A stretch of 64,000 bases of DNA from an uncultured bacterium. Its GTDB lineage: Bacteria > Patescibacteriota > Minisyncoccia > Phycocordibacterales > Phycocordibacteraceae. The stretch covers positions 506,356 to 570,355 of the forward strand of contig CALFMK010000001.1 of assembly GCA_937879955.1 (NCBI GenBank). The letters run 5' to 3'. The position numbers were made by a program, and so were the translations under genes. The notes under the pieces were generated by a model. It had not been told where the DNA came from and made no database searches. It saw only the letters and a list, made by a program, of their open reading frames with translations. This document shows, piece by piece, positions 20,866 through 62,754 of this stretch (position 1 is the first letter of the stretch; each line of letters opens with the position of its first letter).

Positions 20866-21549
20866 ATGGGACTGCGCGGGCCGAAGCCTAAGAGGCAGGA
20901 GATTAAATGGACCGAGGATTTCGCCTACGCGGTCGGGCTACTCGCGACCGACGGCTGCCTCTCTTCTGACGGGAGACATCTCTCGCTTGTATCGAAGGAT
21001 CGCGAGCAGGTAGAGGCAATCAAGAGGTGTCTCGGCTTAGGGGCGGGCATACGTCGTCATGATGCCGGAGTCGCTGGTAAGGACCGGGCATACTTTCGCA
21101 TCCAGTGGGGAGACGTGATTCTGTACGACTTCCTAAGGTCCATAGGGATCAGGGAGCGGAAATCTCTCACCATCGGCGCACTCCAGATACCGGACGAATA
21201 CTTCTTCGATTTCCTGCGAGGCTCGTTCGACGGGGATGGAAGCTTCTACAGCTATCGCGATCCTCGATGGAGCACGAGCTTCATGATCTATACGAGCTTC
21301 GCATCAGCCAGCCATGCCCATGTATGTTGGCTCCGCGAGACCGTACGACGCCTCGCTGGAATCGTCGGACACGTGTCTGTCAGCAAGAGGGGGAATGGCA
21401 TGTACAGCCTCCGGTACGCCAAGCGGGAATCGTTGCAGCTGCTCGCCCGGCTGTACTCTAAGGCCGGCTCGGCCTGCCTTGCGAGGAAAAGATTGAAAAT
21501 AGAGCGCAGTTTGCGTATAGTAGGCGAGTTGCTGCCGGCTGGCAGCTAG
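20866..21549 (+). CDS. double-motif LAGLIDADG homing endonuclease (free-standing)
   Basis: two LAGLIDADG motifs: FAYAVGLLATDGCLSSDG and FFDFLRGSFDGDGSFYSY; 227 aa; GC slightly below flanks; abuts tRNA-Leu. Confidence 0.8.
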   Translation: MGLRGPKPKRQEIKWTEDFAYAVGLLATDGCLSSDGRHLSLVSKDREQVEAIKRCLGLGAGIRRHDAGVAGKDRAYFRIQWGDVILYDFLRSIGIRERKSLTIGALQIPDEYFFDFLRGSFDGDGSFYSYRDPRWSTSFMIYTSFASASHAHVCWLRETVRRLAGIVGHVSVSKRGNGMYSLRYAKRESLQLLARLYSKAGSACLARKRLKIERSLRIVGELLPAGS

Positions 21550-56079: not shown

Positions 56080-57207
56080 ATGCTGATCGGCAAAAACATA
56101 AAGCAAAAAGAGGGTTTCTCTGCGTTCGTTCCTGAGCCTTTCCCGCCCGTGGGACTGGGTGATTTTTCGCATGAGCTCCTCATTAAGGCGGCAGAAGCGG
56201 ACCGTCTGGTGGGGAAGCTCGATGGTGTAACGCACACGCTTCCGGATCTCGACTTCTTCCTCAAGATGTTCGTGACGAAGGACGCTACGTCGTCAGCGCA
56301 GATCGAAGGGACGAAGGCGACGATCATTGATGCTATCGAGATGGATGCTGGTATCGCTACGACGCAGACCGATGCGGATGACATTCTCTACTACGTGAAA
56401 GCGCTTCATTATGGAAGCGAGAGGCTCGCCAATTTCCCGCTATCGCTCAGGCTTATACGGGAGATACACGGACAGCTCATGACAGGAGCGCGCTCCTCGC
56501 ATTTTGCCGACCCAGGCTCCTTTCGGAGGACGCAGAATTGGATTGGAGGAACGTCGCCATCGAACGCGCTCTTCGTGCCGCCTCCGGTTCAGGAGATGAT
56601 GCGGGCGCTCGGCGACCTCGAGGCATTCCTTCACGACGAGATGCAGACGCTCCCAATAATGCATATCGCCCTCACTCACGCGCAGTTCGAAACGATCCAC
56701 CCGTTTCTCGATGGTAACGGGCGTACCGGGCGCTTGCTTATAACCATGATGCTCTGTCATCGTGAACTGCTTGAGCGTCCGGTGCTCTTCCTTTCTTCCT
56801 ATTTCAAGAAGCATCAGAAGACCTACTACACGCGCCTGAACGGATACCACGAAGGGGACGTGGAGCCCTGGGTGGACTTCTTCCTCGATGGCGTAATAGA
56901 GACTGCGAATAATTCGATCGCGATCTCTAAGGAAGTCAGAAAAATCAGAGACGAAGACATGGCGAAGATCCTCAAGCTCGCGAAGCGGGAATCGGAGAGC
57001 GGCGTGCTCGTGCTCTCGAAGCTATTCGGAAATCCTATCGTAACGACCCGTACGATAATGGAGTGGACCAATTTCTCCCGAGCGGGAGCACAAAAGCTCA
57101 TCGAACGCTTCATCGTGCTCGGCATCTTGCAGGCCCGGGAGGAGAAGGGGACCTACGATCGCACGTACGTGTACAAGACCTATCTCGACGTGTTCACGAA
57201 GTCGTAA
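56080..57207 (+). CDS. fic: Fic/Doc family protein (putative AMPylator) with N-terminal inhibitory helix motif and C-terminal wHTH
   Basis: Fic motif HPFLDGNGRTGRLL; N-terminal SSAQIEGT (S/TxxxE(G/N) inhibitory motif); lower GC than flanks; AT-rich promoter region 55991..56079. Confidence 0.9.
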   Translation: MLIGKNIKQKEGFSAFVPEPFPPVGLGDFSHELLIKAAEADRLVGKLDGVTHTLPDLDFFLKMFVTKDATSSAQIEGTKATIIDAIEMDAGIATTQTDADDILYYVKALHYGSERLANFPLSLRLIREIHGQLMTGARSSHFADPGSFRRTQNWIGGTSPSNALFVPPPVQEMMRALGDLEAFLHDEMQTLPIMHIALTHAQFETIHPFLDGNGRTGRLLITMMLCHRELLERPVLFLSSYFKKHQKTYYTRLNGYHEGDVEPWVDFFLDGVIETANNSIAISKEVRKIRDEDMAKILKLAKRESESGVLVLSKLFGNPIVTTRTIMEWTNFSRAGAQKLIERFIVLGILQAREEKGTYDRTYVYKTYLDVFTKS

Positions 57208-58019: not shown

Positions 58020-58697
58020 ATGTTCCTCACTACCTGGGCAGATGTGCTCACACAGTCCTTCCAGAACCTGTTCTACGGACTCGTCGCGTTCATCCCTAAC
58101 TTAGTCATCGCGCTCGTCATCTTCGTGATCGGCTGGCTCGTGGGTGCCGGCATCGGCCGCCTCATCGCGCAGGTCGTCTCGTCGCTCCGCGTCGACCAGG
58201 CGCTCCGCGCCGCCGGCGTCGAGCGCGTCGTCGAGCGTGCAGGGTTCTCGCTCAACGCGGGCGCGTTCCTCGGCTTCCTCGTGAAGTGGTTCTTCATCAT
58301 CGTATTCCTCGTGGCGGCCCTCGACGTGCTCGGCCTCACGCAGGTGACGGCATTCCTCACGGGCGTCGTCCTCGGCTACCTCCCGCAGGTGATCGTGGCG
58401 GTGTTCATTCTCCTCCTCGCGGCGGTCATCGCCGAGGCAGCGCAGCGCGTCGTCGCGGGCGCTGCTCGCGCGGCGAACGTCCGCGCGGCGAACCTGCTCG
58501 GTGCGGTCGCTCGCTGGGCTATCTGGATCTTCGCGATCCTCGTAGCGCTCGAGCGCCTCGGCGTCTCGCCGCTCATACAGACCCTTTTCACGGGCATCGT
58601 CGTAGCGCTCGCGCTCGCGTTCGGTCTCGCGTTCGGTCTCGGCGGCCAGGCAGCCGCAGCGAAGTACATCGAGAAGATCCAGCACGAGATCAAGTAG
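58020..58697 (+). CDS. membrane protein with repeated conserved-TM-helix motifs
   Basis: 225 aa; internal duplication (RAAGVERVVERAGFSLNAGAFLGFLVKWFFII / RAANLLGAVARWAIWIFAILVALERLGVS), 4-5 TM helices; terminator 58722..58752. Confidence 0.55.
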   Translation: MFLTTWADVLTQSFQNLFYGLVAFIPNLVIALVIFVIGWLVGAGIGRLIAQVVSSLRVDQALRAAGVERVVERAGFSLNAGAFLGFLVKWFFIIVFLVAALDVLGLTQVTAFLTGVVLGYLPQVIVAVFILLLAAVIAEAAQRVVAGAARAANVRAANLLGAVARWAIWIFAILVALERLGVSPLIQTLFTGIVVALALAFGLAFGLGGQAAAAKYIEKIQHEIK

Positions 58698-58812: not shown

Positions 58813-59594
58813 CCTCTTACGTGTTAAAGACCAAGAAATTAGTAACCAAACGGAGCGGATAAGCGAAAGCCGTAAGGCTCTCGACACCGCCCCGCACGGG
58901 GCTTTTTTCTTGAAAGGGCACGCAGGTCGTTGACAGACGAATATGCAAATAGGTAATCAACGCCGCTAGGCGTGGACGTTCGCGTCCATGGCTGGCGGAT
59001 TGAATATTGCAGAATCACACAATCGTTAGAAAGTGGTGTTCAGGTTTCCGCACAGGAGACATGAAGGGTGCACGGTGGATGCCTAGGCTTGCGACAGCGA
59101 TGAAGGACGCGACTAATCAGCGAAATGCTTCGGGGAGGCGATTTGTAGCCTTTGATCCGGAGGTGTCCGAATGGGGAAACCCAACCAGCAATGGTTACCT
59201 CTCAATATTTTGTAGAGGAGCGAACCCAGGGAAGTGAAACATCTCAGTACCTGGAGGAATAGAAAACAACAACGAGTTGCGTTCCGTCTATTCGATGCTT
59301 CGAGTAGATGGAACGCGACTCTCGTGATTCCCTAAGTAGCGGCGAGCGAAACGGGAATAGCCCAAACCTGATACTTCGGTATCAGGGGTTGTAGGGCGGA
59401 AGCGCCGTACTTGATACGGCACAAGTTACAAAAGTTCTACATAGCAGAAGAAGCTGGAAAGCTTCGCCCCAGAGGGTAATGGCCCCGTATGCGAAATGTA
59501 AAACCCTTGTGAGCTTCCGATCCTGAGTAGTTCGAGACACGAATAGCTCGGATGAATCTGCCGGAACTAACCGGTAAGGCTAAATATGTCGCAG

Positions 59595-59640
<46 letters not shown>

Positions 59641-61079
59641 GAGAGGGGAGTGAAATAGAACTGAAACCGTGTACTTACAAAGGGTTAGGGTGGGCTCCGG
59701 TCCATCCTAGCGTGCCTATTGAAGAATGAGCCTGCGAGTTTATGTATGTCGCTTCGGCTAAGCCCGTTACGGGGCGGAGCCACAGGGAAACCGAGTGTTA
59801 ATAGCGCGTCCGTGTCATACATAAGACCCGAAGCCAGGTGAGCTTGCCATGAGCAGGGTGAAGTCTGTCGAAAGACAGATGGAGGCCCGAACCCGTATGT
59901 CGTACAACGCATTGGGATGACTTGTGGTAAGGAGTGAAAAGCTAATCGAACCTGGTAATAGCTGGTTCTCTCCGAAACATCTTTTGGGATGGCGTCGCGT
60001 GGTCCCCTTGGGGGTAGAGCACTGGAAGGGATGAACAGGGAGAAATCTCGTCATTCCTATCAAACTCCGAATACCAAGGATTATGAGCGCGGCAGTTAGA
60101 CGGTGGGGGCGAAGCTCCACACGTCGAAGGGGGAAGAGCCCTGGATCGCCAGTTAAGGTCCCTAAATCTACGCTAAGTACAACTTAAGGAAGTGAGGATT
60201 CATTGACAATGAGGATGTTGGCTTAGAAGCAGCCACCATTTAAAGAAAGCGTAACAGCTCACTCATCGAGAGTCCTTGCGCCGAAGATGATCGGGGTTAA
60301 GCGTAGTACCGAAACTGCGGGAATGGAGATCCTCCGGGATCTCCATTCGGTAGGAGAGCGTTCCGTTCTGCTGTGAAGCTAAAGGGGTGACCCATAGTGG
60401 AGCGTACGGAAGTGAGAATGCAGGCACAAGTAACCACAATGCGGGTGAGAACCCCGCACGTCGAAAGAACGAGGTTTCCTCAGCTATGACGATCAACTGA
60501 GGGTTAGTCGGGCCTTAGGGGATGGCGAAAGCCGCACCTGATGGACACAGGGTTAATATTCCCTGACCGATCATATGTGCGATGGAGTGACGGATTGCTG
60601 TATCTATGGCCCATTATTGGATTTGGGTTGGTGCCGTGAGGAGGCTTGGTAGGTAAATCCGCCAGGCGCTACTCCGAGCGGAAAAACAATGTTCTCCTTC
60701 GGGGGAGCAGAGCATAGAGAGCGCGGTTCCAAGAAAAACTTCTAAGCTTCAGCATATGACGACCGTACCGGAAACCGACACAGGTGTTCAGGTCGAGTAG
60801 ACTAAGACGAACGAGTGAGAGGTCCTCAAGGAACTCGGCAAAAAAGCGGCCGTAAGTTAGCGATAAGGCCTGCCCCTAGCAATAGGGGCCGCAGCGAAAG
60901 ATTTTCTGCCAACTGTTTACCAAAAACACAGCTCCCTGCGAACTCGTAAGAGGATGTATAGGGGGTGACGCCTGACCAATGCCGGAAGGTCAAGCAGGGA
61001 CGGTACATTGATTTCGATTGATGTGCTAGGCCCTATAAGCCCCGGTGAATGTCGGCGATAACTATAATCGTCCTAAGGT

Positions 61080-61275
61080 CCTGCATCTGAGCGATCGGAT
61101 GCAGGACGGATTGGGGCGGTTATAGGAGACCGTAAACAGTTCTGAGAAGATTACGTCATCAAAAGCTACCTCTTCAGACCGGAAGGTCTGTTGAATCCGC
61201 GACTCACATGAGAGGCCATACGTCGCGCCCCTAGCAATAGGGTGAAGATATGGTCCTACGTTAAAGGAATAGTAG
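61080..61275 (+). mobile_element. putative group I intron (about 196 nt, no ORF) in 23S domain IV
   Basis: interrupts conserved CCUAAGGU|AGCG; 5' exon ends in U, insert ends in G, contains GAAGATATGGTCC resembling group I P7/P9.0 consensus AAGAUAUAGUCC. Confidence 0.5.
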
Positions 61276-61936
61276 AGCGTAATTCCTTGTCTGGTAAGTT
61301 CAGACGTGCACGAATGGCGTAATGAGTGGAAAACTGTCTCGAGGACTTGCTCGGTGAAAATGCAATACCGGTGAAGATGCCGGTTACCTGTAGTTAGACG
61401 AAAAGACCCCAGGAGCTTTACTACAGCTTGGTATTGGGGTTGTGTGTCGTATGCGTAGCATAGGTGGGAGACTTTGAAGCGTACCTCTTGGGGTACGTGG
61501 AGTCGCCAGTGAAATACCACTCTTACGATGTGCAACTTCTAACCCGCGTAAGAACTACGTGGGGACAGTGCCTGGCGGGTAGTTTTGGTGGGGCGCTATC
61601 CTCCTAAAAAGTAACGGAGGAGTCTATTAAGGTTGGCTAGGCGCGAATGGAAACCGTGCCGATAGTGTAATGGCACAAGCCAGCTTAACTGTAAGGGGTA
61701 CATCCCGCACAGATGCGAAAGCAGAGCATAGTGAACCGATGGTCCGCCTTAGATGCGGCCAGAGATTAACGGATAAAAGTTACCCTGGGGATAACAGGCT
61801 AGTTCCGCCCAAGCGTCCATAGCGACGGCGGAGTTCGGCACCTCGATGTCGGCTCACCTTAGCGCGGGGCTGGAGAAGGTCCCAAGCGTATGGCTGTTCG
61901 CCATTTAAAAAGGTACGCGAGCTGGGTTCAAACCGT

Positions 61937-62249
61937 GTGGGGCTCGAATCTTCGGATTCGTTCCTCACACCGTTTGAATCCCTTCGAGATTTCTGTTGTC
62001 AGAATTCGAAAAAGTGCGAAAGAATGAGAGTGAATGTCTTTTCGTCTTGAAACTAAGATAGAACCAACCACGACACGGCGGCGTGTTCCTGAAAGGGGAC
62101 ACGGGAAGCTGACTGGTATCGGTGGAACCCTACTCGAAAGAGGGGCGACACCGAGGGAAGCCGAAAGGCGCCCGTAGAGACTGAACGTCAGACACCCGGA
62201 AGGGTGATATTACAGTCCGATCCTCCGAGTAATCGGAGCAAACGAAATG
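61937..62249 (+). mobile_element. putative group I intron (about 313 nt, no ORF) in 23S domain V at the I-CreI/I-CeuI-type site
   Basis: interrupts conserved AACGU|CGUGAGACAG; ends in G; contains GATATTACAGTCCGATCC resembling AAGAUAUAGUCGGACC of group I introns. Confidence 0.5.
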
Positions 62250-62643
62250 CGTGAGACAGGTTGGTCTCCTATCTACTACAGGCGTTGATTCTTGAGGAGA
62301 CTTGCCCCTAGTACGAGAGGACCGGGGTGAACTGACCTCTGGTCTACGAGCTGTCACGCCAGTGGCATCGCTCGGTAGCTATGTCGGGATGTGATAACTG
62401 CTGAAAGCATATAAGCGGGAAGCACGCTCCAAGATTAGGAATCGTTATGAGGCTCCTAGAAGATGACTAGGTTGATAGGCTTTAGATGGAAGCGCAGTAA
62501 TGCGTTGAGTCGAGAAGTACTAATATGCCCAGACTTCTGTGCGGAACTCTGTATGTCACATCTGATGATGCGTGACTGCAATATTGAATGGAGATCCTAT
62601 TTGCATATTCGTCCGTCTGCGAAGACGGAGAAAACGTGCGTAT

Positions 62644-62754
62644 GATGCTGGTGATTTATCGGGAGGGCCACACCCGTTCTCATTCCGAACACGGCAGTTA
62701 AGCCTCCTTGAGCCGATGGTACTCGTAAGGGGAGAGTAGGTTGTCGCCAGCATC
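62644..62754 (+). rRNA. rrf: 5S ribosomal RNA
   Basis: helix I GATGCTGGTGA/TCGCCAGCATC, loop CCGAACACGGCAGTTAAGC, GGTACTCGTAAGGGGAGAGTAGG; about 100 nt after 23S. Confidence 0.85.

Follow-up and report, generated by a model that had tools for sequence, protein, structure and literature searches.

A compact group I intron without an open reading frame, probably of a CPR-specific lineage, at position 2593 of the 23S rRNA gene of a Patescibacteria bacterium

We analyzed a 64,000-nucleotide stretch of DNA from an uncultured bacterium (GenBank assembly GCA_937879955.1, contig CALFMK010000001.1; the whole stretch is hereafter called the window), with a G+C content of ~63%. Searching the window with Rfam detects a full-length bacterial large subunit (LSU) rRNA gene at positions 59050-62544 (2345 bits) and a 5S gene at 62647-62752. 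The 23S gene spans 3495 nt, against the 2925 positions of the model. A MAFFT alignment to an Escherichia coli rrl copy, with numbering corrected for the offset of that copy, places two large inserts in the gene: 61080-61275 (196 nt), after U1931, and 61937-62249 (313 nt), between U2593 and C2594. We conclude, with a probability of about 90%, that the 313-nt insert is a compact group I intron without an open reading frame (ORF), that it belongs to an L2593 lineage specific to the candidate phyla radiation (CPR), and that its host is a CPR/Patescibacteria bacterium. The affiliation is based on the nearest 23S gene, from a Parcubacteria metagenome-assembled genome (MAG; locus L102), and on homologues of window proteins that are named Patescibacteria, Minisyncoccia or Paceibacterota. 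The class to which the intron belongs is already known: rRNA introns at positions 1931 and 2593 have been published for CPR bacteria, and the present insert belongs to the class of CPR 23S insertions that occupy E. coli position 2593 and measure 100 nt or more.

The borders of the insert map exactly to a conserved site. In alignment to intron-less 23S rRNA, the junction falls at U2593/C2594, which is the L2593/I-CreI site, as the original prediction had proposed from the sequence. The exon context is GGGUUCAAACCGU, then the insert with its final G, then CGUGAGACAGGUUGGUC, and the predicted ligated exon junction reads ...AAACCGU-CGUGAGACAG. Two pairs of helix 93 (2588-2606 and 2590-2604) show compensatory differences from E. 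coli, which fixes the register of the alignment. The same prediction had given I-CeuI as a second name for this site. We take the I-CeuI target (TAACTATAACGGTCCTAAGGTAGCGA) to lie at about positions 1908-1933, beside the first insert and not at L2593. The insert is preceded by U, and its last base, G62249, is the omega-G; a terminal G is present in 20 of 20 aligned family members. The longest sense-strand ORF that overlaps the insert encodes 47 amino acids, so the description of an ORF-less insert ending in G is upheld.

Intron-less 23S sequences provide further evidence for these borders. Metagenome contig L214 (2391 nt) is 97.4% identical to the exon-only 23S sequence of the window over 2391 nt, has neither insert, and is identical at both ligated junctions over ±40 nt. 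This confirms the borders of both inserts, whether the contig represents a gene or a transcript. Because L214 stops exactly at the 3' end of the 23S sequence, it may be a transcript rather than a gene; if it is assembled mature rRNA, it would directly demonstrate that a close relative splices precisely. The ligated junction is also intact in at least 120 metagenome contigs, which were retrieved with a 33-nt ligated junction as the query. Among the matches listed, 31 extend several kb past the rRNA gene and are clearly genomic.

We show by comparative analysis that the 313-nt insert has the hallmarks of a group I intron. One genome per GTDB species was scanned for 23S exons that end at U2593 and are followed by a base other than C. 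This yielded at least 120 loci, mostly from CPR/Patescibacteria, together with Acidimicrobiaceae, Omnitrophota, and a few archaeal false positives. Complete L2593 inserts, 213-840 nt in length, are present in 92 of the loci listed. Among the matches listed, more than 50 inserts share the 3' half of the window's insert (nhmmer, E<1e-3), and the closest of these is that of L102, which occupies the same site and is 78% identical over its full length, the 3' part of the L102 23S gene being 95% identical to the window's. Compensatory differences between the two inserts occur in P7, P8, P9, and the 5' hairpin. The Rfam model Intron_gpI (RF00028) scores the L102 insert above its gathering threshold (57.6 bits), as it does the L2593 inserts of L100 (50.8 bits) and L025 (50.5 bits). 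In L102, the Rfam alignment puts P3, P4, P5, P6, P8, and P9 on the segments that visual inspection had assigned to these helices in the window.

A covariance model of the family (R1) recognizes the same region. This model, which spans P3 to P7' and was built from 15 homologues with the window sequence excluded, matches 62105-62218 at 100.8 bits (E=3.6e-22). This match, obtained with a model blind to the window sequence, is far beyond chance. Elsewhere in the 64 kb the model matches only once, within the first insert (22.3 bits, E=0.004). Among the loci listed, it also recovers more than 50 L2593 inserts of other genomes, with scores of 58-109 bits. Together with the covariation of the core, pseudoknot included, and the Rfam calls on same-site homologues, this bears out the earlier proposal of a group I intron. 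Weaker R1 matches (29-77 bits) occur elsewhere in the 23S genes of nine loci, which suggests that many of these genes carry several related group I introns at different sites.

The ribozyme core is well defined (Table 1). The minimum free energy (MFE) fold of the insert recovers P4-P5, P6, P7 enclosing P8, and P9 (z=-3.6). In an alignment of 20 sequences (A2), 96.6% of the cells of the P3-P9 core are paired, compared with 30-40% in slid controls. Both sides have changed in 15 of the 34 core pairs, and the covariation score was reached by none of 500 shuffles. The closing pair of P7 is AU in 12 sequences, GC in 8, and unpaired in none. By analogy with G264-C311 in Tetrahymena, G62179-C62217 is the predicted guanosine-binding pair of P7. 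A motif quoted in the original prediction as resembling group I elements does fall in J8/7-P7: GGGTGATATTACAGTCCGATCC at 62202-62223 comprises the 3' strand of P8, J8/7, and the 3' strand of P7. The window blocks GUAGA-G-A-GACUG and AUAUUA-CAGUCC agree with the family/Rfam consensus blocks GUAGAGACUA and AAGAUAUAGUCC, respectively. Conserved GNRA-type loops close P2 and P9. J7/3 consists only of AAC (62184-62186), and the intron thus has no P7.1/P7.2; we describe its subgroup as an IA-like core without P7.1/P7.2.

Table 1. Features of the 313-nt intron, its 5' exon, and the LAGLIDADG gene (window positions)
Feature	Position	Strand	Evidence or remark
5' exon end, last 12 nt (23S G2582-U2593)	61925-61936	+	Alignment to E. 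coli rrl; U61936 lies at the 5' splice site
Whole intron, 313 nt, without ORF	61937-62249	+	Sequence, alignment, L214 junction, ORF check
L1 insertion, 137 nt, lineage-specific; 5' hairpin 61937-61970 (UUCG loop) and more hairpins (e.g., 61983-62010)	61937-62073	+	MFE fold
Auxiliary exon-binding strand ACCGUUUGAAUC	61969-61980	+	Pairs with exon -1 to -12; A61969 opposite splice-site U; C.C mismatch at -3
Internal guide sequence (IGS) CACGGCGG	62074-62081	+	CACG 62074-62077 with 3' exon CGUG (P10); GCGG 62078-62081 with 5' exon CCGU (P1)
P2 hairpin (CGUGUUCC UGAAAG GGGACACG)	62082-62103	+	97.7% paired, 8/8 pairs covary, n=27
P3 5' strand CUGAC, pairs with 62187-62191 GUCAG	62109-62113	+	Both strands changed in 5/5 pairs; same segments in the Rfam alignment of L102
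P4 (62119-62124/62149-62154) around J4/5 GAA and P5 (62128-62135/62140-62145, GAAA loop)	62119-62154	+	Fold, Rfam alignment of L102, covariation
P6 (GGG 62155-62157/CCC 62171-62173) and P6a (GCC GAAA GGC)	62155-62173	+	MFE fold, covariation
P7 5' strand G-A(bulge)-GACUG	62177-62183	+	P7 100% paired
P3 3' strand GUCAG	62187-62191	+	Covariation
P8 hairpin CACCC GGAA GGGUG	62193-62206	+	4/5 pairs covary
J8/7 AUAUUA and P7 3' strand CAGUCC	62207-62218	+	Rfam alignment of L102, family alignment, model
P9 hairpin CUCCGA GUAA UCGGAG	62223-62238	+	4/6 pairs covary; AGUAAU loop conserved
Omega-G, final intron nucleotide	62249	+	3' exon begins at C62250 (C2594)
LAGLIDADG gene, 227 aa, double-motif	20866-21549	+	Pfam LAGLIDADG_3, E=4.7e-7

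The guide sequence is displaced from the start of the intron. Comparison of all L2593 inserts reveals two lineages, a classical one with the exon end GAACGU and a CPR-type one with RACCGU, to which the window intron belongs. Classical P1 is short (GAACGU at the exon end, GCGUYC in the intron) and forms its U.G ~10 nt into the intron. In the window, the reverse complement of the ligated junction CCGU.CGUG is CACGGCGG, which places G62078 opposite U2593 (U61936) as a U.G wobble. All 27 gapless-aligned members have this octamer unchanged, and almost every intron of the CPR-type lineage contains it. It lies directly 5' of P2, a hairpin whose sequence varies, and ~43 nt 5' of the P4 anchor, and CACUGCGU has the same spacing in the classical lineage. 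Furthermore, exon position -4 and the fourth P1 base of the IGS covary between the lineages, C occurring with G and A with U. The canonical layout IGS(P10+P1)-P2-J2/3-P3 is present, with the U.G wobble at the splice site.

The 5' hairpin at the very start of the intron had seemed to contradict this layout, as it faces the splice-site U with A; if this were the catalytic P1, it would breach the near-universal U.G rule. The invariance of CACGGCGG and the position of P2 next to it identify intron nucleotides 1-137 as a P1-loop insertion, which resolves the anomaly. Across 73 related introns, the guide begins 52-299 nt into the intron, as against ~10 nt in the classical lineage. The exon-binding strand in L1 is real all the same, as the only two exon positions that vary among these 73 introns both covary with it: -6 (AU in 25, GC in 46) and -8 (CG in 68, UA in 4). 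The L1 strand at 61969-61980 is probably an auxiliary clamp, or a competitor, for the 4-bp P1.

These features suggest how the intron might be excised. The RNA would excise itself from pre-23S rRNA in the usual two steps. In the first, an external guanosine, docked at G62179-C62217 in P7, would attack after U61936, held in the 4-bp P1. Omega-G62249 would then replace this guanosine, and the freed 5' exon would attack between G62249 and C62250, with P1 and P10 aligning the exons. The strand 61969-61980, which would base-pair with 8-12 nt of the 5' exon, may serve as a tether to offset the short P1, or as a competitor that has to open at its last four pairs. As it has no endonuclease gene, the intron cannot home alone; it may persist by vertical inheritance, or it may be mobilized by the I-CreI-like enzymes of ORF-bearing relatives at the same site.

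We tentatively propose a broader scheme, speculative though it is, in which CPR-type L2593 introns recognize the 5' exon in a bipartite manner. The 4-bp P1, with its guide 50-300 nt into the intron, would be complemented by a separate 8-12-bp clamp in L1. A ground-state Watson-Crick U-A pair between clamp and exon would also hide the splice site. For splicing to proceed, the RNA would have to change conformation so that CCGU passes from the clamp to the guide, perhaps in time with ribosome assembly or with the aid of the conserved LAGLIDADG protein linked to rplS, acting as a maturase for the ORF-less rRNA introns.

The window contains a gene for this LAGLIDADG protein at 20866-21549. The original prediction noted it as a free-standing LAGLIDADG endonuclease; the gene is indeed there, but it proves to be a conserved double-motif host gene for which we found no link to the intron. 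More than 1200 homologues were detected at E≤1e-3, mostly in Patescibacteria. The 120 of them that were listed are 214-268 aa long and, self-match aside, 53-73% identical. The gene immediately follows rplS in the window and in three related loci (L122, 4001-4705; L123/L124, 4001-4696). In two genomes other than the window's, rplS and a gene for a pseudouridine synthase directly precede it. Among 20 members, the two catalytic aspartates do not vary, nor does a basic block at the C terminus (RKRLKI...LRIVG). We rejected the protein as the intron's I-CreI-type homing endonuclease: its match to intron-encoded ORFs is at the level of the motif only (15 bits), its PDB matches are marginal (E≥0.14), and no NCBIfam model matched it. 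Thus, the protein is the product of a conserved syntenic host gene and is not I-CreI-like. It may be a domesticated endonuclease or, hypothetically, a maturase.

Several observations weigh against our reading of the 313-nt insert. The Rfam search for group I introns gave no match to it, either at the gathering score in the window or at E≤10 with the insert alone, and RF00028 thus leaves the intron below its gathering threshold; the proposed Rfam scan was therefore negative for this sequence, and its identity is shown by the comparative analysis. We attribute the miss to a sensitivity limit of the general model and do not regard it as evidence against group I membership. P1 has only 4 bp, and the exon bases that pair with the IGS are constant within the lineage, so that P1 rests on invariance, spacing, and one between-lineage covariation. 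In the MFE fold, exon positions -12 to -1 and the start of the intron are instead drawn into a long helix with 61963-61980. With so short a P1 and the splice-site U paired with A in this fold, autonomous splicing may be inefficient or cofactor-dependent. The same fold allows for a different assignment, in which the long 5' hairpin serves as the catalytic P1 and forms a Watson-Crick U-A pair at the 5' splice site, leaving CACGGCGG with another role. This hairpin is the minimum-energy pairing, it is present in the 73 related introns, and it covaries with exon variants. The base opposite U-1 is A in 44 of 53 introns by a first count and, in the wider set of 73, A in 65 and G in 7, so this position behaves as if paired. 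Against this stand the properties of CACGGCGG, an exact and invariant junction complement that has the classical spacing and tracks exon -4. In addition, exon -3 is unpaired in 56 of the 73 hairpins, which weakens exactly the part that is handed to the IGS. In Tetrahymena, mutagenesis reportedly showed the first step to be impaired when the cleavage site carries a Watson-Crick pair. Our literature search returned nothing relevant on natural U-A pairs at group I 5' splice sites or at L2593. We consider this assignment unlikely, and the invariance of CACGGCGG and the comparison with the classical lineage led us to reject it. There is somewhat more to be said for a group I intron that needs a protein cofactor, either a maturase or a host factor, and does not truly self-splice. 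The short P1 and the absence of the P7.1/P7.2 of the classical lineage would both fit such dependence. One candidate is the LAGLIDADG protein encoded beside rplS, which is conserved, syntenic in the window and two other genomes, and equipped with both catalytic aspartates; LAGLIDADG maturases are an established class, as cited in the parts of PMC11270868 used here. However, all canonical core elements are present, and GNRA-type L2 and L9 loops are typical of self-sufficient small introns. On balance, cofactor dependence is a possibility to be taken seriously, though not the one that we favor.

Two other explanations deny that the insert is a functional intron. It could be the decaying relic of a mobile intron that lost its endonuclease gene, as it has no ORF; ORF-bearing relatives of the same lineage are ~705-745 nt long, which fits the gain-decay-loss cycle of homing endonuclease genes. 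This is very unlikely, since the ribozyme part is intact and, at 100.8 bits, near the top of its family, and an unspliceable insert at this position of the rRNA should be lethal. CPR genomes usually have a single rRNA operon, which also counts against a relic. Alternatively, the insert could be an intervening sequence (IVS) that is cut by RNase III to leave a fragmented 23S rRNA, or it could persist in mature rRNA, as the L1931 intron of Simkania reportedly does. IVS elements are known in bacteria and, at other sites, in CPR 23S genes, according to the parts of PMC11270868 drawn on here. Yet the ends of the insert do not pair with each other, and the site lies in conserved helix 93 beside the peptidyl-transferase center, not at a variable helix tip; the lack of a terminal stem and the conserved site led us to reject an RNase III-processed IVS. 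The catalytic core, guide, and omega-G are, moreover, under purifying selection with covariation, and CPR rRNA inserts are reported to be removed from transcripts (PMC11270868, same parts). An IVS or a retained insert is thus the most improbable of the explanations considered. A compact, ORF-less group I intron remains the reading that we prefer.

The window intron belongs to a well-documented group of CPR rRNA inserts. According to the parts of Tsurumaki et al. (2024, J Bacteriol; PMC11270868) on which we draw, 82% of CPR 23S genes contain inserts, and positions 1931 and 2593 are two of the sites where these recur. By Rfam, 45% of these 23S inserts are group I, and the LAGLIDADG_1 genes of CPR inserts are mostly single-domain. 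The same parts cite Brown et al. (2015) as the first to note CPR rRNA inserts and cite earlier work for their removal from transcripts. The CPR inserts at 2593 share host group, gene, and position with the window intron, which falls among the approximately one-half of CPR 23S inserts that Rfam misses. The displaced guide, the L1 insertion with its exon-binding strand, and the absence of P7.1/P7.2 are not described in those parts of the article.

The classical L2593 introns, which include the chloroplast intron of Chlamydomonas reinhardtii (Cr.LSU/I-CreI) and cyanobacterial introns, occupy the same site, after U2593. Their core blocks (AUAUCGGUGRAA, AUACCGAGGGAA, GUAGAGACU, AAGAUAUAGUCC) are related to those of the window, and both share the IGS-P2-P3 layout and the 43-nt spacing to P4. 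The classical lineage has a short P1 loop with the guide ~10 nt in, whereas the window intron has its 137-nt L1 insertion. Three classical introns (L104, L028, and L030) have ~70 nt between P7 and P3', in contrast to AAC in the window, which therefore lacks the P7.1/P7.2 that mark L2593 introns of the IA3 type between these strands. Cyanobacterial L2593 introns with P7.1/P7.2 and LAGLIDADG ORFs are described in the parts of Haugen et al. (2007; PMC1995217) used here; the 5'-region architecture of the window intron is described neither there nor in the corresponding parts of PMC11270868.

The two lineages also carry similar endonuclease genes. Classical L2593 introns usually contain a single-motif LAGLIDADG ORF of 145-190 aa, whereas the window intron has none and so lacks the intron-encoded gene that characterizes mobile introns with an I-CreI-family homing endonuclease. 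ORF-bearing introns of both lineages encode single-motif I-CreI-like proteins of 143-172 aa; in the CPR-type relatives of ~705-745 nt, these proteins are 143-158 aa long. We observed the classical layout in MAGs of Acidimicrobiaceae, Saccharibacteria, and Omnitrophota. Classical L2593 introns are present in 13 non-CPR, high-GC loci from Acidimicrobiaceae/Actinomycetota MAGs. They are either ~735-740 nt long with an I-CreI-like ORF or 282-379 nt long and ORF-less, and they have P7.1/P7.2 and a canonical short P1. These introns suggest that rRNA introns may be commoner outside the CPR than the portions of the literature used here would suggest.

Other small group I introns resemble the window intron in part. 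The tRNA-Ile intron of Azoarcus and the tRNA-Leu intron of Anabaena share several traits with it: small size, lack of an ORF, a short P1 of only a few base pairs, and GNRA-type loops closing P2 and P9. These tRNA introns belong to subgroup IC3, reside in another host gene and site, and have neither an L1 insertion nor an auxiliary exon-binding helix. In Tetrahymena pre-rRNA, Woodson and Cech reportedly described a P(-1) hairpin that sequesters 5' exon nucleotides and competes with the active fold. That competitor lies inside the exon, whereas the strand in the window intron is intronic, conserved, and covaries with the exon in 73 introns.

The first insert, at L1931, appears to be a group I-derived mini-intron without the P4-P6 domain. 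The original prediction counted two ORF-less group I-like introns in this 23S gene; this is right for the 313-nt insert and holds only loosely for the 196-nt one. The 16 L1931 inserts share a 5' hairpin, an exon-binding strand, and GCU[A/G]CCU, which complements the junction AGGU.AGC, followed by P2, P3, P7, P8, and a terminal hairpin. In the window, the guide-like GCUACCU lies at 61165-61171, and P2, P3, P7, P8, J8/7, and the terminal hairpin are present. Only ~6-8 nt separate P3 from P7 in 11 of the 16 inserts, the window's included, where the spacer is ~8 nt long (UCACAUGA). P4-P5-P6 are recognizable in five longer inserts (L008, L100, L177, L189, and L228). In ten minis, pairing amounts to 93-100% in P2, P3, and the terminal hairpin, and 13 of the 14 pairs there have changed on both sides; for P7 it is 100%. 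The guide base opposite U-1 is A in the 10 minis with GCU[A/G]CCU and in L008; it is G in L100, L177, and L189, which retain P4-P6. Rfam gave no group I match on the first insert of the window; the L1931 insert of L100 passes. A literature search found no description of natural group I introns without P4-P6 in these bacteria.

The surroundings of the 23S gene show a few further features. Within the window, Rfam detected no 16S gene upstream of the 23S-5S pair, and the rRNA genes thus appear to be unlinked. Upstream of the pair lie a Fic/DOC-family gene (56080-57207) and a mechanosensitive-channel-like gene (58020-58697). The 23S gene has two additional expansions relative to E. coli, at 59276-59328 (53 nt) and 59394-59440 (47 nt), near positions 233 and 290 of the E. 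coli copy. These may be IVS-type or expansion segments in domain I.

By itself, the 313-nt intron is of little consequence, since group I introns in rRNA at 1931 and 2593 have already been published as a hallmark of the CPR. Better leads are offered by its neighbor at L1931 and by the conserved LAGLIDADG host gene. Nevertheless, standard Rfam screening misses this intron and probably also many of the ~55% of CPR 23S inserts that have been left unclassified, despite their being bona fide group I introns. A lineage-specific model recovers more than 50 inserts among the loci listed, so that published counts of group I introns are probably underestimates. The displaced guide also calls for caution in the automated annotation of P1. 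The auxiliary exon-binding helix, in turn, is a possible folding or timing device in these introns.

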